Below, piece after piece: positions 4,073-56,501 of a stretch of 64,000 nucleotides of DNA. The DNA is taken from NCBI GenBank assembly GCA_963643205.1, contig CAVIJJ010000001.1, forward strand, positions 134,651-198,650, written 5' to 3'. The notes beneath the pieces were generated by a model. That model was not told the DNA's origin. It worked only from the letters and a program-made list of their open reading frames with translations, and searched no databases. Within the stretch, counting starts at the first letter, position 1. Each line of letters begins with the position of its first letter. The DNA is from a bacterium (GTDB lineage: Bacteria; Bacillota; Clostridia; Christensenellales; CAG-138). A program made the position numbers and the translations under genes.

Positions 4073-5363
4073 CGATGGAATAAACGCGATAGTACGCGAA
4101 TTGGGTATATCTAAGCAGGCCTATGAATTCGTACGCACGGCCGAAGACAGCATAAAAGGTGTTTATGAACGAATAGACGCAACGGCAGAGGTAAATTTTG
4201 CCAGGGTTTTAGCCGGATTCAAGGAGGAAAACGTAGGCCTTAGGCATTTTGCGCCTACTACTGGTTATGGTTATGATGATACCGGGCGCGATACGCTTGA
4301 CAGACTGTTTGCGCACGCCCTGTTTGCAGAAGACGCGCTGGTCAGGCCGCAGATTACATCCGGAACACACGCACTGTATTTAGCTCTTTCGGGACTTTGC
4401 CAAATGGGAGACTCGGTAGTCGCGGCATCGGGAAAACCTTATGATACTCTTGAAAACGCTATAGGACTGAGCGGAGACCATCCGCATTCATTAAAAAAAC
4501 AAGGCGTAACATTTGATTATGTTGATCTGAATGAGGACGGAAGCATAAATATAGCCGCTGTGCTTGACATGATAGAGAAGAAAAACGCCGCCGTGCTTTA
4601 TGTTCAACGTTCGCGCGGATACGCTTGGCGTGATTCATTGCTTGTGAATGAGCATATGGCACCGCTATTTAAGATTGTTAAACAGAAAAAGCCGGATATA
4701 GCAATATTTGTTGATAATTGTTACGGCGAATTTACGGATGTTGTCGAGCCGCTGAGCGTTGGAGCCGATATAATAGCGGGTTCGCTGATAAAAAATCCGG
4801 GCGGCGGAATTGCACCCACAGGCGGGTATATAGCGGGAAAGGCAAAATATATCAAACGAATAGAAAACCTGCTCACGGTGCCCGGAATGGGCCGTGAGGT
4901 AGGCTCTTACGCGGCAAGCTATCGCCCGTTCTATCAGGGATTGTATATGGCACCGCATACTACTGCTCAGGCCTTAAAGGGCGCGGCATTGTTTGCGCGG
5001 GTATTTGAGATGCTTGGAATGGAGACAATGCCGGCTTCGGACGCTAAACGTTCCGATATAGTTCAGGCGGTTCGCTTTAATGAGGCCGAAGGACTCATAT
5101 CATTCTGCCGCAGCATACAGAGCGCGTCTCCTGTTGACTCTGCCGCCGTACCCGAACCGTGGGATATGCCGGGATATACGTCCCAGGTTATAATGGCCGC
5201 AGGGGCATTTGTGCAGGGCTCATCAATAGAACTCAGTGCAGATGCGCCCATAAGAAAACCCTACACGGCATATGTGCAGGGAGGGTTGACATACGAGCAT
5301 TGCTCTCTTGCGGTTATGATGGTACTTACGGATCTTATAAAGAACGGCATTGCCAAGCTTTAA
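4065..5363 (+). CDS. ynbB: PLP-dependent Cys/Met-metabolism family protein (aluminium-resistance / YnbB family)
   Basis: 432 aa. Overall similarity by eye to the YnbB-type methionine gamma-lyase-like family. Overlaps the hfq end by 8 nt. Confidence 0.75.
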   Translation: MTNDGINAIVRELGISKQAYEFVRTAEDSIKGVYERIDATAEVNFARVLAGFKEENVGLRHFAPTTGYGYDDTGRDTLDRLFAHALFAEDALVRPQITSGTHALYLALSGLCQMGDSVVAASGKPYDTLENAIGLSGDHPHSLKKQGVTFDYVDLNEDGSINIAAVLDMIEKKNAAVLYVQRSRGYAWRDSLLVNEHMAPLFKIVKQKKPDIAIFVDNCYGEFTDVVEPLSVGADIIAGSLIKNPGGGIAPTGGYIAGKAKYIKRIENLLTVPGMGREVGSYAASYRPFYQGLYMAPHTTAQALKGAALFARVFEMLGMETMPASDAKRSDIVQAVRFNEAEGLISFCRSIQSASPVDSAAVPEPWDMPGYTSQVIMAAGAFVQGSSIELSADAPIRKPYTAYVQGGLTYEHCSLAVMMVLTDLIKNGIAKL

Positions 5364-5992
5364 TACTGCCTATAAAGACCTATAAGTTTACCGATTATTT
5401 CTACATCTTTAATATCGACGATAATTGGCTGCATGCCTCTGTTTTCAGGCTGCAGCCTTATTTTATCGTTTTTTTCATAAAATATGCGTTTTAAGGTTGC
5501 ATCCTCACCCGAAACTCGCACAACACCTATTTCCCCGGAATCAATGCCCATTCCGCGATGAACTACTATTGTGTCGCCATCGTTTATGCCGGCCTCTATC
5601 ATGCTTTGACCATGAACGGTTAACATGAATACCTCATTTTCTTCGGCACCTTTCAGCAGATGCTTCGGCATAAGGTAATAATCCTGAATGCTTTCAACAG
5701 CCAATATCGGCATACCGGCGGCTACGCAGCCAACCAGCGGTACTGATTGCATATCGGTATCGGCAGTACGCTTAAACGCATTCTCGGGAAGGGTGATGGT
5801 ACGTTGCTTTGACGGGTTGCAGATTATAAGCCCCTTCTCGGCAAGGTTGGATAAGTGCATATGCACGGTAGAAGTGGATTTTAGCCCAAGCGCTGCTCCT
5901 ATTTCGCGTACGGTCGGCGGATAAGAGTTAACGGATATGAACTCCTTTATATAATTATATACCGCTTTTTGTGTTTCGCCGGATTTGCGCAT
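5360..5992 (-). CDS. lexA: SOS repressor LexA
   Basis: N-terminal winged HTH, an Ala-Gly cleavage region (VAAGMPI), and the S24 peptidase part (GQSM...LKR). I chose the start at 5992 (MRKSGE...) because a GGGAGG RBS lies 8 nt upstream; the longer ORF start at 6037 has none. Confidence 0.93.
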   Translation of the reverse strand: MRKSGETQKAVYNYIKEFISVNSYPPTVREIGAALGLKSTSTVHMHLSNLAEKGLIICNPSKQRTITLPENAFKRTADTDMQSVPLVGCVAAGMPILAVESIQDYYLMPKHLLKGAEENEVFMLTVHGQSMIEAGINDGDTIVVHRGMGIDSGEIGVVRVSGEDATLKRIFYEKNDKIRLQPENRGMQPIIVDIKDVEIIGKLIGLYRQY

Positions 5993-6506: not shown

Positions 6507-7559
6507 TTAATCATCTCTAAGCTTTATTACTTTTGCGGCAAGCCTGCGCCTGTCCTCGGATACGGCGGCGTAATGCTTGCGCGTTGTATTAACGTCTTTG
6601 TGGCCAAGAACGTCGGCCACCAAATAGATGTCGCCGGTTTCTCTATAAAGATTGGTGCCATACGTGCTCCTTAGCTTATGAGGCGATATTTTCTTTAGAG
6701 GGACTGCAATTTTAGCGTATTTCTCAACCAAATTTTCCACTGCCCGCACGGTAATGCGAGTTTTTTGCAACGAGAGAAAAAGAGCGTTTTCGTGCCCGGG
6801 AGCCGCTTGAATATGCTCCCTGTCGAGCATATATTGCAGCAGGGCCTCGCGTGCCTCATCTCCGAATACCAAAATATCCTGCTTGCCGCCTTTACGTATG
6901 ATAGAAAACTCATTTGAAGTGAAGTTTATATCATCCATGTCTATGCCGACGAGTTCACTTATACGTATTCCCGTACCCAGAAAAAGGGTGAGTATTGCCA
7001 GGTCGCGAGCCTGCGTTTTTTTGTGATATGCTTTTTGCTTTTCTGTCAGTCCGTCACCGTTTTGCACAATATCAAGCAAATCGGCAACCTCATTCGGCTC
7101 AAGGCGGATTATAGCCTTATCCCTGATTGTCGGCAGATCAACGAGCGAGGGAGCGTTGTGACTAAGTTTTTCTTTTTTATAAAAGTACTTATAAAGCGAA
7201 CGAAGGCTTGAGAGCTTTCGCGCTTTAGACCGCTCCTGATTAACTTTTTCCCGTTCCTCATCATCAACGTAAACACTCACATAGCTTAGATATATTTCGA
7301 TATCGGTAACGCTGACCGTATCTATATCCGAAAGGGTAAGGGATCTGATATCGGCATAATCAAACCTAGATGTTTCCTTTATTAAAAACGAAAAGAAGTT
7401 TTTAATATCGCCCGCGTAAGCTACACGGGTTCTGATAAGCGTTTCATTTTCTATGCCGCGAAAAAACTCGGCGCAGAATGCCGGCAACTCTGAAATCAGA
7501 TGCTTTAGTTGCAGCATGTATTGTTTGTACTGGGCGGAGTCAAAAGTTTGGTTAGCCAT
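6507..7559 (-). CDS. Site-specific tyrosine recombinase, XerC/XerD/integrase family
   Basis: Complete catalytic set is visible (GIRISE Arg, HKLRST, LGH, terminal HY Tyr) and there is an N-terminal SAM-like core-binding domain. 350 aa. Confidence 0.85.
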   Translation of the reverse strand: MANQTFDSAQYKQYMLQLKHLISELPAFCAEFFRGIENETLIRTRVAYAGDIKNFFSFLIKETSRFDYADIRSLTLSDIDTVSVTDIEIYLSYVSVYVDDEEREKVNQERSKARKLSSLRSLYKYFYKKEKLSHNAPSLVDLPTIRDKAIIRLEPNEVADLLDIVQNGDGLTEKQKAYHKKTQARDLAILTLFLGTGIRISELVGIDMDDINFTSNEFSIIRKGGKQDILVFGDEAREALLQYMLDREHIQAAPGHENALFLSLQKTRITVRAVENLVEKYAKIAVPLKKISPHKLRSTYGTNLYRETGDIYLVADVLGHKDVNTTRKHYAAVSEDRRRLAAKVIKLRDD

Positions 7560-8280: not shown

Positions 8281-8357
8281 CGGGGTGTAGCGCAGTCCGG
8301 TAGCGCACGTGCTTTGGGAGCATGGGGCCGGGGGTTCAAATCCCTTCACCCCGACCA
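8281..8357 (+). tRNA. tRNA-Pro (anticodon TGG)
   Basis: Cloverleaf folded by eye: acceptor CGGGGTG/CACCCCG, anticodon loop TTTGGGA, T-loop GGTTCAAATCC, encoded CCA. Confidence 0.9.
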
Positions 8358-8363
8358 ATATAT

Positions 8364-8439
8364 GGCCCCTTGGTCAAGCGGTCTAAGACACCGCCCTTTC
8401 ACGGCGGTAACAGGAGTTCGAGTCTCCTAGGGGTCACCA
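8364..8439 (+). tRNA. tRNA-Glu (anticodon TTC)
   Basis: Acceptor GGCCCCT/AGGGGTC, anticodon stem CCGCC/GGCGG with loop CTTTCAC, T-loop GTTCGAGTC, encoded CCA. Confidence 0.9.
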
Positions 8440-8468
8440 CTTCCCCATAGCGATGGGTGTTAAGAAAT

Positions 8469-8545
8469 GGGCCTTTAGCTCAGTTGGTCAGAGCGGTCGG
8501 CTCATAACCGATTGGTCCGGGGTTCGAGTCCCTGAAGGCCCACCA
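8469..8545 (+). tRNA. tRNA with CAT anticodon (elongator Met or Ile2; not initiator-like)
   Basis: Anticodon loop CTCATAA. The anticodon stem lacks the three consecutive G-C pairs typical of an initiator. Encoded CCA. Confidence 0.85.
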
Positions 8546-8574
8546 TTTTCTTAGCTTCGAACTTTTTAAATCAT

Positions 8575-8651
8575 GGCCCGGTGGTGCAGTTGGTTAGCAC
8601 GTCAGCCTGTCACGCTGAAGGTCAGGGGTTCGAGCCCCCTCCGGGTCGCCA
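8575..8651 (+). tRNA. tRNA-Asp (anticodon GTC)
   Basis: Acceptor GGCCCGG/CCGGGTC, anticodon loop CTGTCAC, T-loop GGTTCGAGCCC, encoded CCA. Confidence 0.9.
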
Positions 8652-8659
8652 AACTTCCT

Positions 8660-8735
8660 GCCTCGGTAGCTCAGCTGGTAGAGCAAGGGACTGAAAATCC
8701 CTGTGTCGGTGGTTCGACTCCACTCTGAGGCACCA
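8660..8735 (+). tRNA. tRNA-Phe (anticodon GAA)
   Basis: GCCTCGGTAGCTCAGCTGGTAGAGC 5' half, anticodon loop CTGAAAA, encoded CCA. Confidence 0.9.
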
Positions 8736-8753
8736 TATGCCATTACAGTGTTT

Positions 8754-8829
8754 GCTGGTGTAGCTCAATTGGCAGAGCAACTGATTTGTAATCAGTAGGT
8801 TGCGGGTTCAAGTCCCTTCACCAGCTCCA
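8754..8829 (+). tRNA. tRNA-Thr (anticodon TGT)
   Basis: Acceptor GCTGGTG/CACCAGC, anticodon loop TTTGTAA, encoded CCA. Confidence 0.9.
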
Positions 8830-8848
8830 TTGATAAATGATTTGCCGT

Positions 8849-8933
8849 GGATGGGTTCCCGAGCGGCCAAAGGGAGCGGACTGTAAATCCGTTGTCACAG
8901 ACTACGATGGTTCGAATCCATCCCCATCCACCA
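8849..8933 (+). tRNA. tRNA-Tyr (anticodon GTA), class II with long variable arm
   Basis: Acceptor GGATGGG/CCCATCC, anticodon loop CTGTAAA, extra arm, encoded CCA. Confidence 0.88.
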
Positions 8934-8939
8934 ATATTC

Positions 8940-9026
8940 GCGGGAATGGCGGAATTGGCAGACGCGCACGGTTCAGGTCCGTGTGAGGGCGACTTCATGC
9001 AGGTTCAAGTCCTGTTTCCCGCACCA
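8940..9026 (+). tRNA. tRNA-Leu (anticodon CAG), class II
   Basis: Acceptor GCGGGAA/TTCCCGC, anticodon loop TTCAGGT, long variable arm, encoded CCA. Confidence 0.88.
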
Positions 9027-9061
9027 GAGAAGGCTTCAATGAGATTGGAGCCTTCTCTTTT
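9027..9061 (+). terminator. Rho-independent terminator of the tRNA operon
   Basis: 9-bp perfect stem GAGAAGGCT/AGCCTTCTC followed by TTTT. Confidence 0.75.
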
Positions 9062-9137
9062 ACACTCTGAATGATTTTATCATTCTCCCCTGCCTTCTTT
9101 ATATCTAATATGAACTGAAACGGAGGACTTTGGTTTT

Positions 9138-9704
9138 ATGGGTATCGGCATAGTGGATCTGCTTTTGATTGCAGTGGCACTTTCCATGGATGCGTTTGCG
9201 GTTGCCGTATCAAGCGGCATTGTGTCTGACTCTCCGGGCTGGAAGAACATAGTTAAGCTTGGATTCTTCTTTGGCTTCTTTCAGTTTATGATGCCGGTTA
9301 TCGGATGGCTGCTCGGCAGCAGCGTAAGCACATATATTGAGTCTATTGACCATTGGGTTGCGTTCGGACTGCTTGCCTTTATAGGCATACGAATGATCAT
9401 AGAGGCTGCCAAGGGCGGTGACGAAGAGAAAAAGGTATCTGACCCGTTCGGCACAAAGAACCTGTTTGTTATGGCTGTAGCCACAAGCATAGATGCCCTT
9501 GCTGTTGGTATCAGCTTTGCGCTTACCGGTGTAAGTGTATGGTCTTCATCTGCCATTATAGGCGTTGTAACCTTCACTATTTCCTCAATTGGTGTGCTTA
9601 TCGGCAAAAAGGTCGGATCAATGTTTGAAAAAAGCGCCGGTATTTTGGCCGGAATTATACTGGTCGGCATAGGTGTAAAAATACTGATAGAGCACCTGAT
9701 GTAA
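9138..9704 (+). CDS. mntP: Manganese efflux pump MntP
   Basis: 188 aa polytopic membrane protein. N-terminus LLLIAVALSMDAFAVAVSSG and an internal repeat ATSIDALAVGISF are typical of MntP/YebN. Confidence 0.88.
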   Translation: MGIGIVDLLLIAVALSMDAFAVAVSSGIVSDSPGWKNIVKLGFFFGFFQFMMPVIGWLLGSSVSTYIESIDHWVAFGLLAFIGIRMIIEAAKGGDEEKKVSDPFGTKNLFVMAVATSIDALAVGISFALTGVSVWSSSAIIGVVTFTISSIGVLIGKKVGSMFEKSAGILAGIILVGIGVKILIEHLM

Positions 9705-9742
9705 GTTTTTCTGCTAACGTTTGAAATATACAAAAACAATAG

Positions 9743-9771
9743 TTGACAAACTAATGCGTTGGTGGTAATAT
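9743..9771 (+). promoter_or_regulatory. Promoter of the solo tRNA-Pro (TTGACA -17 nt- TAATAT)
   Basis: -35 at 9743-9748, a 17-nt spacer, and -10 at 9766-9771. Confidence 0.65.
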
Positions 9772-9801
9772 ATACAAGGTTGCTGAAGCAACCAAGATCG
9801 T

Positions 9802-9878
9802 CTGGGTGTGGCGCAGTTTGGTAGCGTGCTTGAATGGGGTTCAAGAGGCCGGAAGTTCGAATCTTCTCACCCAGACCA
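9802..9878 (+). tRNA. tRNA-Pro (anticodon GGG)
   Basis: Acceptor CTGGGTG/CACCCAG, anticodon stem CTTGA/TCAAG with loop ATGGGGT, T-loop GTTCGAATC, encoded CCA. Confidence 0.88.
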
Positions 9879-53561: not shown

Positions 53562-54404
53562 ATGAAATCAGCGGTATTTGATATAGGTGGAACATTTGTT
53601 AAATATGGAGTGTATGAGGACGGACTTCTTAAAGAAATATCCTCATTTCCAACTCAGGGGCAAGATGGTGCGGATGCGCTGATATCTCGCCTGGTTAAAA
53701 CATGTGAGGGTATTGCTGACGCAAATGCGATTGGGATTTGTACACGCGGACAGGTTAACTGCGATACCGGGAGCATAATATACGACCCTCCGCATATTAT
53801 ACCCGGATATACCGGCAAAAATTTAAAGGATGAATTCGGCATATTCGGCGTACCGGTTGCAGTTGAAAACGACGCAAACTGCATGGCGATTGCAGAAGGC
53901 GCTGACGTTTCGGCAGGCAATACTGCGGACGTACTCTGCCTTACATACGGCACATGCGTTGGCGGCGCAATAGTAAGGAACGGTAAAATATACCATGGGG
54001 CGAACTGGTCCGCAGGTGAATTCGGTATGATGTACTTAGGCAGTGAATACTATGAGAATGTTGCGAGCGTTACCCGCCTTGTAGAGCGTGCTAAATCCAT
54101 CGATAAAGCCCTTTGCGACGGGCATGCGATAGCCAAAGAAATGCATCGTAAGGAAGTTTTTGAGCTTGTTAACGACTGGGCCGAGAACGTGGCCGAGGGC
54201 ATAGCTTCCCTAATACATATATTTAACCCATACTGCGTTATAATCGGCGGAGGGTTGATGGAGAATGACGATATATTCCGTCTTGTGGCATCAAAGGTCA
54301 GAAAACTGACCGCTCCTGGTTTTGATGTAATAATACAGAAAGCCAAATATGGCAACAGCGCTGGGCTTATCGGAGCAGGAATGCTGGCCGAAAAAGAAAT
54401 ATAA
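53562..54404 (+). CDS. ROK-family sugar kinase (no ROK zinc-Cys motif seen)
   Basis: N-terminal ATP-binding FDIGGTFVKYG, and DANCMAIAE and GGGL blocks. 280 aa. Divergent from nagB. Confidence 0.82.
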   Translation: MKSAVFDIGGTFVKYGVYEDGLLKEISSFPTQGQDGADALISRLVKTCEGIADANAIGICTRGQVNCDTGSIIYDPPHIIPGYTGKNLKDEFGIFGVPVAVENDANCMAIAEGADVSAGNTADVLCLTYGTCVGGAIVRNGKIYHGANWSAGEFGMMYLGSEYYENVASVTRLVERAKSIDKALCDGHAIAKEMHRKEVFELVNDWAENVAEGIASLIHIFNPYCVIIGGGLMENDDIFRLVASKVRKLTAPGFDVIIQKAKYGNSAGLIGAGMLAEKEI

Positions 54405-54414
54405 CCAAGTAAAA

Positions 54415-54463
54415 GACTCCCCTATATGCACCAGAATAAAATCAAAGTGTATATAGGGGACTC
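54415..54463. terminator. Long imperfect hairpin between the convergent ROK and 101-aa genes (bidirectional terminator candidate)
   Basis: 17-nt arms GACTCCCCTATATGCAC / GTGTATATAGGGGACTC with 2 mismatches and a 15-nt loop. Confidence 0.5.
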
Positions 54464-54495: not shown

Positions 54496-54801
54496 TTATG
54501 AGTCGGCTTTTATGTTCATAGGGTAGAAAATAACATAACATTCGCTCATTTCGCCTAAAAAAAGGAATATGTTCTCCCCCATTTCAATATGTCGTTTAAA
54601 AGTAAGGTCCGGTATGAAAAGCCTTCCGCTTGTACGTTTAGGACCTTTTAGGGTGTAACCCACATCGTTCGGATTGGCGTGCAAAGACTCAACAGCTTCG
54701 CAAAGTCCGGGAAGTTTAAGCGTTTTTTCAAGTTCCGGAAGCATCGTTTCGGCGTTTATGTACACAAGATTATCAGGATCCGTAAACCAATTTATATTCA
54801 T
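54496..54801 (-). CDS. Hypothetical 101-aa soluble protein, the only gene downstream of the cobalamin riboswitch
   Basis: GGAGGA RBS 5 nt upstream of the ATG. Protein-like composition with no TM segment. No family recognised. Confidence 0.7.
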   Translation of the reverse strand: MNINWFTDPDNLVYINAETMLPELEKTLKLPGLCEAVESLHANPNDVGYTLKGPKRTSGRLFIPDLTFKRHIEMGENIFLFLGEMSECYVIFYPMNIKADS

Positions 54802-54899
54802 AGTTATCCTCCGAATACAAAAATACCGCCGGATTTCTCCAACGGTACAGATAAAAAGCTATCGCCAAAGCTGCTTCCTTGTCCAAATCCGCGTGGAGA

Positions 54900-55070
54900 A
54901 GCATGCTCCGTGCAGGTCTTCTGGCTTACGCATCGTTGCTCAGCTTCGCCTTCCCATATAATACAGTGGCTCAATGAAGCTTCGCTAGCGCATACAGCGG
55001 CGGGACCGCGCAGGCTTTTAACCTGCTTCCCTTTTAACCAATCTATTACCGATTGGACACGAAACATTTA
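54900..55070 (-). promoter_or_regulatory. Cobalamin (B12) riboswitch aptamer; the leader continues to the RBS at 54807
   Basis: The minus strand carries the conserved blocks in the canonical order. First, GGTTAAAAGGGAAGCAGGTTAAAAGCCTGCGCGGTCCCGCCGCTGTA (55039-54993). Then GCCACTG...GGGAAGGC (54970-54948). Then the B12 box AAGCCAGAAGACCTGC (54927-54912). A 10-bp closing P1 helix, ATGTTTCGTG (55067-55058) pairing with CACGGAGCAT (54912-54903), encloses them. Confidence 0.85.
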
Positions 55071-55080
55071 TTTCATGGTT

Positions 55081-55109
55081 ATTGTATCATCACCTGATGA
55101 ATATGTCAA
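55081..55109 (-). promoter_or_regulatory. Promoter of the riboswitch transcript (TTGACA -17 nt- TACAAT)
   Basis: Minus strand: consensus -35 at 55109-55104, which overlaps the MATE stop codon; an exact 17-nt spacer; -10 at 55086-55081. Confidence 0.65.
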
Positions 55110-56437
55110 ATCTGCTGATACCTAATCCACCTAATGCAAAAAATCAGCGAAATCGCGGTTGCTATGCTCCACCCTATCGGCCACGCCAACCATATACCAA
55201 CTGAGCCGAGCGAAGTAGCCGACAATGCTATAGCTAAAAGCACCCTTAATAACAAATCACTGAATGTGGAAGCCATAAATTGCTTCATTAAACCTGCACC
55301 GCGAAGTACACCATCCGCCACAAGTTTTGCCGCTACCACCGGATAAAACGGCGCAAGAATTCTAAGGTATATTACCGAAGTGCTCATAGCAAGATCGGTT
55401 GGATTATCCAGGAACAGCATCGAAAGCTTGTCTCCAAATAAAAAGTATAGTGCTATAAGCGGTATAGACAACAGCCATACCATTTTTGTTCCTGCCCAAT
55501 ATCCGCTTTTTATGCGTTCCGGCTTTTGAGCACCTATGTTTTGCGCCGTAAAGTTTGATACGCCATTACCCAACGTTGTAAAAGAGGATATAACCAAATT
55601 ATTGAGCTTTACGCCGGCAGAGTATCCTGCCATTACGGCTGTACCGAACGTGTTTATAACGCCCTGTATAATGATATTTCCAACCGAAATAAAGCTTTGC
55701 TGCAGTATGCTCGGTATTGCGATACGGGCAATTTTGCTCATTATTGCCGATGAGAATACCGGTGCGGGTTCATCCGTTTCAACCTTTTTAAGCCTAAAAA
55801 GAACAAACAAGAGAGCTAATACGCAGCTGATTCCCTGACAAATAAATGTTGCCCATGCAACACCCGCAACACCCATGTCGAAGGCCGTTACAAACAGTAT
55901 ATCGGCACCTATATTGCTCAATGAAGAAGCCGCAAGAAAGTAAAACGGAGTTTTTGAATCGCCCAGAGCGGAGAAAATACCGGTTGCCACATTATAAAAG
56001 AATACAAACGGCAAGCCGTATATGTATATACGAAGGTAAAGCAGCGAATCCGCCATAACATCGGCAGGCGTATTTATGCAAAGAAGCATTTCTTTTGCGA
56101 ATAGCAAACCCAACGTCATAAGCAGAACACACAGAGCTCCGCCGGCAATAAACGTGGTTGACACCGCCGTTTTCATATCCTTCATTTGCTTGGCTCCGAA
56201 AAACTGAGCCGTAATAACAGAACCGCCAATATTGCAGCCAAACGCGAAGGCTATAAATATAAGCGTTATTTCATAGCTGTTGCCAACCGCCGCTAAAGCG
56301 TTTTCGCCTATAAACTTGCCAGCGACAAGGCTATCCGCAATATTATAAAGCTGCTGGAATATAATGCTGCCAAACAACGGCATACAAAAGCGCCAAAGTA
56401 CTTTTTCGCTCTTTCCTACAGTTAGGTCAGTATTCAT
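55106..56437 (-). CDS. MATE-family multidrug/toxin efflux transporter
   Basis: 12-TM profile. The N-terminus ...LWRFCMPLFGSIIFQQLYNIADSLVAGKFIGENALAAVG is typical of MATE. Start at 56437 has a GGAGG RBS. Confidence 0.9.
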   Translation of the reverse strand: MNTDLTVGKSEKVLWRFCMPLFGSIIFQQLYNIADSLVAGKFIGENALAAVGNSYEITLIFIAFAFGCNIGGSVITAQFFGAKQMKDMKTAVSTTFIAGGALCVLLMTLGLLFAKEMLLCINTPADVMADSLLYLRIYIYGLPFVFFYNVATGIFSALGDSKTPFYFLAASSLSNIGADILFVTAFDMGVAGVAWATFICQGISCVLALLFVLFRLKKVETDEPAPVFSSAIMSKIARIAIPSILQQSFISVGNIIIQGVINTFGTAVMAGYSAGVKLNNLVISSFTTLGNGVSNFTAQNIGAQKPERIKSGYWAGTKMVWLLSIPLIALYFLFGDKLSMLFLDNPTDLAMSTSVIYLRILAPFYPVVAAKLVADGVLRGAGLMKQFMASTFSDLLLRVLLAIALSATSLGSVGIWLAWPIGWSIATAISLIFCIRWIRYQQI

Positions 56438-56501
56438 TGAATAACCTCCGTCACACAATATATGCGTATGCAGCATTAATTGTATGCTTCTACAGGGCGG
56501 T

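Follow-up and report, generated by a model that had tools for sequence, protein, structure and literature searches.

A cobalamin riboswitch and the single gene under its control, encoding a 101-amino-acid (aa) protein that we refer to as HOM, lie on the minus strand of a 64,000-nucleotide stretch (hereafter, the window) of a genome from the Christensenellales lineage CAG-138 (contig CAVIJJ010000001.1). The RNA is an ordinary member of a well-known class. The interest lies in its cargo, an unannotated protein family with no detectable structural match. We read the locus, with moderate confidence, as a B12-repressed attenuator in front of the gene for an accessory protein that takes part in late cobamide assembly or salvage, with a cysteine-rich protein of family PF04071 as the likely partner. 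Used as a pointer, the riboswitch places an unannotated protein family in the B12 economy of gut Clostridia.

The riboswitch and its expression platform

The aptamer is a full-length match to RF00174 at 55077-54894 (-), with 121.2 bits, an E-value of 7e-30 and model positions 1-189 covered without truncation (cmscan). This is about fourfold the curated gathering score of 31.5 bits, and it is the only riboswitch in the window. The core blocks follow one another as GGGAA-P5 (with a GGU..AA..CC loop), CUGUA, GCCACUG...GGGAAGGC and the B12 box AGCCAGnAGACCUGC. They align to the consensus with high posterior probability and are invariant across nine related aptamers. Loop L5 reads UUAAAAG (55021-55015) and the B12 box AAGCCAGAAGACCUGC. 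The outer helix of the alignment is a P1 of 10 bp (55067-55058 with 54912-54903), made of eight Watson-Crick and two G-U pairs. A sequence-only reading of this stretch had proposed the minus-strand riboswitch, its hallmark blocks in the right order and the 10-bp P1, and all three were recovered.

Conservation of structure points the same way. Across 23 related aptamers, 94.9% of the cells in the aptamer helices are paired, against 35-38% in slid controls, and double-sided (compensatory) changes occur in 25 of the 37 aptamer pairs, a value reached by none of 500 shuffles; the pairing figures come from an alignment that was fitted to the model and should be read with that in mind. Among four close relatives, P2 changes from CAAUC/GAUUG to CGAUC/GAUCG. 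The E-value together with the covariation excludes chance, and we regard the identification of riboswitch and terminator as practically certain. Judging from the class of the aptamer, the putative ligand is cobalamin or another corrinoid.

The promoter that had been read just upstream (TTGACA-17-TACAAT) is present, with its -35 hexamer overlapping the stop codon of the upstream MATE-family gene (55106-56476, -), and it is invariant in four related loci (L001-L004). A MATE-family efflux gene is found directly upstream of HOM or its riboswitch in the window, L001-L004, L040, L053 and L073, and the riboswitch promoter lies within a few bases of the MATE stop codon in the window and L001-L004. This adjacency may be synteny only.

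Downstream of P1, folding suggests a set of competing hairpins. The candidate antiterminator pairs UUCUCCA with UGGAGAA, a perfectly complementary duplex of -11.6 kcal/mol, both strands of which are invariant in five relatives. Its UGGAGAA strand is also the 5' arm of the leader terminator. The candidate anti-antiterminator H1 competes for UUCUCCA; it folds alone at -8.8 kcal/mol and is part of the minimum-free-energy structure of the full platform. The paired arms of H1 are invariant in five relatives and hence carry no covariation evidence. When the nascent transcript is folded to 54833, the minimum-free-energy structure is the long antiterminator hairpin (-20.9 kcal/mol). This hairpin also buries GCUUUU (54859-54854), which is complementary to the AAAAG of L5 and is its likely partner.

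The leader terminator has an energy of -15.8 to -16.8 kcal/mol and ends 22 nt before the ATG. Its tail UUUUGUAUUC, taken with the last U of the stem, gives UUUUUG (read UUUUUGUAUUC). The U-rich tract that the sequence-only reading had assigned to an expression platform belongs to this hairpin (54848-54823). In relatives, the stem changes from UACCG/CGGUA to UGCCG/CGGCA, and from G-U to A-U. Each of the 18 examined leaders with a riboswitch, the window's included, has a hairpin with a U-tract ahead of the start codon and after the aptamer, often 50-300 nt before the ATG in the related ones. Because it is found throughout these leaders, transcription attenuation appears to be the conserved mode, and control in the window is most likely transcriptional. 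A different pair of segments, CGGAUUU and AAAUCCG, had been suggested earlier as mutually exclusive pairings. Both are present, but AAAUCCG is not conserved in L002-L004 and UUCUCCA/UGGAGAA is better kept, so we rejected CGGAUUU/AAAUCCG as the main antiterminator.

HOM and its genomic links to B12

By its conservation, HOM is a real protein under strong constraint. The family comprises 67 clusters in a database of 5.8 billion proteins, all of them unnamed or "hypothetical", and a profile search retrieved 103 representatives among 1.84 billion proteins. Homologues (67 clusters, 80 genomic loci) share 47-97% identity. In 71 distinct locus-encoded sequences, 17 residues are invariant (M1, W5, Y14, L33, P44, G48, G53, R56, L61, P64, I72, M74, G75, G83, E87, C88 and Y89) and seven more reach at least 97% conservation (T57, F62, D65, H71, E73, E76 and N77); the conserved residues outline the motifs LFIPDL, HIEMGEN and GEMxECY. 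HOM carries no signal peptide. An AlphaFold2 model built on a 28-sequence alignment is alpha/beta, with five strands and four short helices (predicted local distance difference test score, pLDDT, 83; predicted template modelling score, pTM, 0.72). We take HOM to be small, soluble and of alpha/beta type; its Cys88 is invariant and its acidic motif, LFIPDL...HIEMGEN, nearly so. No family in Pfam or NCBIfam matches HOM at E <= 1, which agrees with the earlier view that it lies outside the known B12-regulon families (btu, cob, cbi, metE, nrd etc.). By sequence, neither HOM alone nor a profile matched any entry in the PDB, and Foldseek found nothing significant (E < 0.1) for the model in the PDB or BFVD.

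The terminator hairpin that had been proposed after the gene was also found, between HOM and a convergent ROK-family gene (53562-54404, +). The 106-nt fold has an energy of -28.4 kcal/mol and a z-score of -2.9; a simple terminator scan missed it owing to its large loop.

We assembled 80 HOM loci from reference genomes of Oscillospiraceae, Christensenellaceae, Anaerovoracaceae and other Clostridia, and scanned them with Rfam, a custom cobalamin model, neighbour clustering and Pfam. They divide into 35 loci outside one expanded subfamily and 45 within it (the MRINWF subfamily, discussed below). Outside the expanded subfamily, 34 of the 35 loci have a link to B12 in cis (see table). An RF00174-type riboswitch heads HOM or its operon in 23 loci, and the cobT, cobU, cobS and cobC genes are operon partners of HOM in 11. 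Ahead of the six cobT operons of the L043 type, canonical and variant riboswitches were looked for and none was found. Homologues of the gene are thus linked to B12 elements, and with this all three outcomes that had been named beforehand as refuting the sequence-only reading have turned out in its favour. At the level of genomic context, the result supports the earlier suggestion that the 101-aa protein is a candidate for a new B12-related function.

In four loci (L026, L076, L078 and L079), HOM lies between riboswitches, for example at 5538-5734 and 6633-6830 in L078. A second full riboswitch follows HOM by ~50-200 nt and controls the next gene, and L079 and L026 have a third, divergent copy. 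In L076, genes of an energy-coupling factor/ATP-binding cassette (ECF/ABC) transporter lie ~1.8 kb downstream of the second riboswitch. In these loci HOM is a self-contained B12-controlled unit, as in the window.

The cob-linked loci hold further small genes. A ~125-aa open reading frame (ORF) between cobS and cobC (L043 4733-5116; also L052, L054, L057, L058, L059, L063, L064, L065, L069 and L070) matches only the C-terminal third of CobU (PF02283 positions 117-167, E 9e-9) and is a truncated CobU paralogue. Between HOM and a CbiK-like protein that bears a signal peptide and is under riboswitch control lie two small proteins of ~165 aa, secreted or membrane-anchored and with no Pfam match (L059 4840-5337 and 5450-5950; also L064, L065 and L069). 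These two may serve to capture corrinoids.

A second link leads to PF04071. HOM is adjacent or fused to this cysteine-rich domain in 19 of the 35 loci. In the fused forms, of ~190 aa, PF04071 lies C-terminal to HOM (E ~4e-28; residues 106-185 of 194-aa forms), and in further loci HOM adjoins a stand-alone PF04071 protein or cobC~PF04071. Among the 103 matches of the profile search, PF04071 is the only genuine fusion; other long matches were rejected as fusions and look like miscalled starts, frameshifts or chimeras. HOM itself is not a PF04071 member, as it has no match to the profile and meets the domain only as fusion partner or neighbour. PF04071 proteins, with the multi-cysteine motif CxxxPCH...CxFCYCPLY...CxxC, form more than 2,400 clusters against the 67 of HOM, and probably bind metal. 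Three independent PF04071 contexts were sampled, and two of them are cob operons, with the gene between cobT and cobU in one and after cbiP in the other; PF04071 is also fused to the CobC phosphatase. Searches of the PDB found no solved structure for the PF04071 protein, the searchable literature on PF04071, on "cysteine-rich small domain" with cobalamin and on DUF2284 yielded nothing relevant, and a single-sequence AlphaFold2 model of a natural HOM~PF04071 fusion (P0069) was unusable at a pLDDT of 38. Overall, we think it rather probable that HOM works with PF04071.

Several side observations concern the same two families. PF04071 "zf-like" genes in cob contexts are found at L084 5001-5354, L086 5001-5300, L005 6311-6616 and L081 5113-5988. 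At the end of the cob operon in L086, an 84-aa protein with a Pfam HNH_repeat match (4722-4976) directly precedes the stand-alone PF04071 gene, and HNH_repeat proteins may be a second small partner family for PF04071. Two divergent HOM relatives (P0093 and P0110) have N-terminal extensions, one of them with a weak HNH_repeat match. In L077, a second, degenerate HOM paralogue (6723-7022) lies 137 nt downstream of a HOM~PF04071 fusion gene; in it HIEMGEN has become PMEQGKK and Glu87 has become Lys, while the Cys is kept.

Proposed role of HOM and competing explanations

The mechanism we propose is that of a single-gene, B12-repressed transcription unit. Transcription would start at about 55074 from the strong sigma-70 promoter, and the first ~180 nt would make up a cobalamin aptamer of the class-I type. 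As long as no corrinoid is bound, the long antiterminator, in which UUCUCCA pairs with UGGAGAA, would arise in the nascent leader, and RNA polymerase would read into the 101-aa gene. With corrinoid bound, P1 would be stabilised, L5 would probably kiss GCUUUU, and H1 would be favoured; the antiterminator would then be lost and the terminator would form. This OFF direction, from B12 to termination, is suggested by family precedent and by the operon partners of the gene. HOM itself would act when B12 is scarce, at the nucleotide-loop stage of late cobamide assembly or salvage (CobT/CobU/CobS/CobC), probably in physical partnership with the PF04071 protein.

Three independent kinds of evidence tie HOM to cobamide metabolism, namely riboswitch control, membership of nucleotide-loop operons, and fusion or adjacency to PF04071. 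That HOM is B12-related is therefore very likely. B12 repression and the synteny with cobT/U/S/C favour a role in late assembly or salvage. A place at the nucleotide-loop or salvage step specifically is a more tentative assignment, with chances a little short of even, and we know of no vacant step in the textbook nucleotide-loop pathway that would obviously need a 100-aa protein.

Several observations weigh against this reading. For ligand dependence and for the OFF direction, the grounds are kinetics and family precedent, and the folding calculations do not show either. The full leader is most stable with the terminator formed, whether or not the 3' strand of P1 is blocked (-28 to -36 versus -21 to -24 kcal/mol), so the switching decision must be kinetic. 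The predicted kissing duplex between L5 and L13 is weak (-0.6 kcal/mol). Searches of Pfam, NCBIfam, PDB sequences and folds give no clue to the activity of HOM. Furthermore, HOM is alone in the window: no PF04071, cobT/U/S/C or other cob, CbiK or DUF2284 gene is present in the 64 kb, and any partner must therefore be encoded elsewhere in the genome. The earlier description of a "lone" gene is right for the window but atypical of the family, in which PF04071 partners or cob genes usually accompany HOM. Finally, the 45 MRINWF loci of the 80 have no riboswitch and have unrelated neighbours, so the HOM family can function without B12 control.

The main rival, which we consider possible though clearly less probable, is that HOM serves corrinoid acquisition or trafficking, for example as a cytoplasmic B12-binding chaperone or escort, and is not a component of nucleotide-loop assembly. 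Some contexts look like uptake, such as the operons in which a riboswitch is followed by a secreted CbiK-like lipoprotein, two small secreted proteins and HOM, and the loci with ECF/ABC transporter genes nearby (L008, L026, L056 and L076). In addition, DUF4430 and DUF4465 surface proteins are among the other targets of the variant RNA found at the head of some HOM operons, and the invariant Cys88 and near-invariant His71 could ligate cobalt. However, HOM lacks a signal peptide, and no fusion of it to a transporter domain occurs. The sole fusion is to PF04071, a domain found inside biosynthetic cob operons, and the tightest conserved synteny of HOM is with cobT-U-S-C.

A second rival concerns the mode of control, which would be translational or dual if the ligand freed TTCTCC (54900-54895) to sequester the Shine-Dalgarno sequence GGAGGA (54812-54807). 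The complementarity noted earlier between these segments is present, with a duplex of -8.3 kcal/mol. Yet the 5' arm of the terminator offers UUCUCCA a better, perfectly matching partner in UGGAGAA, and both of these segments are invariant, whereas the surroundings of the Shine-Dalgarno sequence vary among close relatives. Together with the canonical hairpin and U-tract between aptamer and Shine-Dalgarno sequence, here and throughout the 18 leaders, this makes translational control unlikely and leaves transcriptional attenuation as the preferred mode.

It is far less probable still that HOM has no B12-related function, being either a B12-independent substitute or a small mobile or toxin-like protein that stands behind riboswitches by chance. 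B12-independent isozymes do occur among the genes under riboswitch OFF control, but the known isozyme replacements need more than 101 aa. For a toxin, the top fold matches of the HOM model were RelE/HigB toxins and RNase Sa, which we rejected as meaningless (best E 0.13, all above 0.1; probability at most 0.28; template modelling score 0.2-0.3; root-mean-square deviation ~14 A). HOM has no PADLOC match and no conserved small partner gene of the antitoxin type. Mobility is suggested by the MRINWF subfamily, which is multi-copy per genome and near recombinases in several loci. The linkage of HOM nevertheless extends beyond riboswitches to biosynthetic cob genes and to a cob-operon protein, by adjacency as well as by fusion.

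The MRINWF proteins (100 aa, MRINWFKDENHLVYING...) come from Oscillospiraceae and account for loci within L009-L062 (e.g. L036 5925-6303). They often occur as two copies per genome, such as L033 with L036 and L012 with L044. Every copy is preceded by a promoter of its own (GTGACAAA-17-TGnTATACT) and by a leader as short as ~28 nt, and the neighbours are LysR, DUF1275, TetR and recombinase genes, with an occasional DUF2284. Copies of the variant RNA lie within ~2.5 kb of MRINWF genes in seven loci. By sequence motif, the closest relatives of the subfamily (L007, L008, L023 and L056) have the riboswitch-HOM-PF04071 arrangement, and for this reason the MRINWF subfamily looks derived, its riboswitch control having been lost.

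There is practically no chance that the ATG-initiated 87-codon frame over the aptamer and platform is a real gene, as it has no ribosome-binding site, a TAA abuts its ATG, and the stretch is itself the 121-bit RF00174 match, with the compensatory pair changes of an RNA. In L001, despite 97% identity of the downstream protein, the frame is interrupted by a 1-nt indel, and the longest open run has 46 codons; the other relatives have 35-81 open codons, and none of 17 related leaders keeps a comparable frame. The ORF is thus spurious, as had been suspected, and a gene-call artefact is corrected.

Apart from the features in the table, the window contains an ordinary nine-tRNA gene cluster (8281-9875, +), unrelated to the riboswitch.

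Table. Features of the HOM transcription unit in the window, arrangements of the 35 HOM loci outside the MRINWF subfamily, and copies of the variant RNA.
Feature	Position or loci	Strand	Basis or number of loci
Sigma-70 promoter TTGACA-17-TACAAT with extended -10 TG	55081..55109	-	11/12 consensus matches
Cobalamin riboswitch aptamer, long form with P6 extension	54894..55077	-	RF00174 match
Spurious 87-aa ORF over aptamer and expression platform	54804..55067	-	mechanical ORF listing
Candidate anti-antiterminator hairpin H1 (UGCUUCUCCA...UGGA...GAAGCA), directly 3' of P1	54872..54903	-	folding
Candidate antiterminator, UUCUCCA(CG) 54900-54892 with (CG)U-UGGAGAA 54844-54835	54835..54900	-	folding
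Leader intrinsic terminator, 11-pair stem with GAAA loop (54848-54823) and tail (54822-54813)	54813..54848	-	scan and folding
Shine-Dalgarno GGAGGA, 5 nt upstream of ATG	54807..54812	-	sequence; GGAGG-type sequence conserved before homologues
HOM gene, 101-aa protein, sole gene under the riboswitch	54496..54801 (ATG at 54801)	-	ORF and conservation
3' hairpin (GGGGAGUC-type stem, 54460-54418) and UUUUAC	54412..54460	-	folding
RF00174-type riboswitch directly before HOM	L001-L005, L007, L008, L023, L026, L056, L058, L060, L076-L080		17
Riboswitch, PF04071 protein, HOM	L066, L067		2 (Rfam 35.9 and 36.7 bits)
Riboswitch, secreted CbiK-like protein, two small secreted proteins, HOM, cobT-cobU-cobS-cobU'-cobC	L059, L064, L065, L069		4
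HOM 9-16 nt after cobT-cobU-cobS-cobU'-cobC~PF04071	L043, L052, L054, L057, L063, L070		6
Cobalamin-like variant RNA before HOM	L006, L068 (directly); L072, L073 (via DUF2284 and PF04071)		4
HOM divergent from riboswitch-CbiK unit	L071		1
HOM locus cut by contig end	L074		1
Variant RNA copy	L006 5709-5905 (core 5738-5809)		
Variant RNA copy	L068 core 5723-5794		
Variant RNA copy	L072 2510-2581		
Variant RNA copy	L073 3964-4035		
Variant RNA copy	L005 6679-6750		
Variant RNA copy	L028 2616-2686	-	
Variant RNA copies	metagenome loci L094-L173		

A variant cobalamin-like RNA and comparison with known systems

The leaders of L006 and L068, ~310 nt long and with promoter and terminator, contain a compact element that looks like a pared-down relative of the cobalamin riboswitch missed by current models. 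P1 and a P2 hairpin, both variable, are followed by GGCGGAAYGGGGUG-loop-CCCCRCGAG, GGUCACUGUGA, another variable hairpin and AGUCAGAUACGCC. Downstream stands a hairpin whose CACC loop could kiss the GGUG of the core. In L006, L068 and 14 metagenome loci, no Rfam family, the cobalamin clan included (RF00174, RF01482 and RF01689), gave a match with E <= 1 at the element, and no clan match reached the gathering score in six whole loci with a copy, among them L006, L005, L028, L072 and L073. Our canonical custom cobalamin model (R1) misses it as well; this model gave weak matches in only two of the 80 loci, and one of these two falls on a separate canonical riboswitch.

A metagenome scan for two core motifs found more than 120 stretches, mostly from human gut, in ~20 distinct sequence types. 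P1 and P2 form from unrelated sequences in 23 of 24 distinct variant sequences, and compensatory changes occur in the core helices as well as in the CACC hairpin. Furthermore, four copies held out from a core model (R2) are found by it at 81-86 bits. The bases that precede GGGG and follow CCCC (columns 8 and 24 of alignment A9; L006 5745 and 5761) covary as U..G or C..A, with one exception, A..G in L158. This pattern fits an isosteric U-G/C-A(+) wobble closing the P5-like hairpin.

Large secreted proteins are the products of the genes downstream of the variant element. Of eight targets, two match DUF4430 strongly (~5e-17) and two more fall just under the Pfam cutoff for it; one target carries DUF4465 (3e-39), and others weakly match an alpha/alpha-toroid segment. 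The element also heads the DUF2284-PF04071-HOM operon. The searchable literature on DUF4430 with riboswitches and on the signature sequences of the variant RNA held nothing relevant, and a description beyond that literature is possible. If the non-detection by Rfam holds generally, B12 regulons in Oscillospiraceae are under-annotated.

A more speculative extension, which we consider possible but doubtful, is that HOM and PF04071 form a two-part metal- or Fe-S-dependent accessory module for an unrecognised nucleotide-loop or salvage step in gut Clostridia, such as corrinoid reduction, hand-over or lower-ligand-specific processing between CobS and CobC, and that the variant RNA is a distinct riboswitch class controlling corrinoid-capture surface proteins. 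If true, the textbook CobT/U/S/C scheme would be incomplete for gut Clostridia. The late cobamide pathway is usually taken as fully enumerated, and an extra conserved component would interest the field, as corrinoid salvage and remodelling shape competition in the gut microbiota. Either way, the comparative data make a "hypothetical protein" testable, namely as HOM acting with the widespread, cob-operon PF04071 at the nucleotide-loop or salvage stage.

Among known RNAs, the variant element resembles the class-II and variant cobalamin riboswitches (RF01482 and the adenosylcobalamin-variant RF01689). It likewise has no P6 extension, it shares a GGAA-P5 core with a GGUG loop, a CACUG element and the B12-box-like AGUCAGAUACGCC, and it precedes B12-related genes. 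It differs in that the models of these families do not detect it at E <= 1 in 16 loci.

Among proteins, the closest counterparts of HOM in habitat are the PF04071 "zf-like" proteins, annotated as "Zn-finger protein" or hypothetical. Both are families of ~100 aa with no assigned function, and they share a niche in cob operons and B12 riboswitch units. In contrast to PF04071, with its ~8 conserved cysteines, HOM has a single one, a different, alpha/beta predicted fold and a far narrower distribution. CobT, CobU, CobS and CobC are operon partners of HOM, expected to be needed under the same B12-limited condition, with which it shares no sequence or fold similarity.

The window riboswitch itself shows no structural difference from the class-I, adenosylcobalamin-type RF00174 leaders with intrinsic terminators that precede btu and cob genes in Firmicutes. 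It shares with them the full-length match, the B12 box, the GCCACUG...GGGAAGGC P6 extension, the closure by P1, an L5 with a complementary downstream GCUUUU, and a terminator/antiterminator platform. What sets it apart from those leaders is its cargo, since the gene for one 101-aa protein from an unannotated family stands in place of a btu, cob, cbi, metE or nrd gene.

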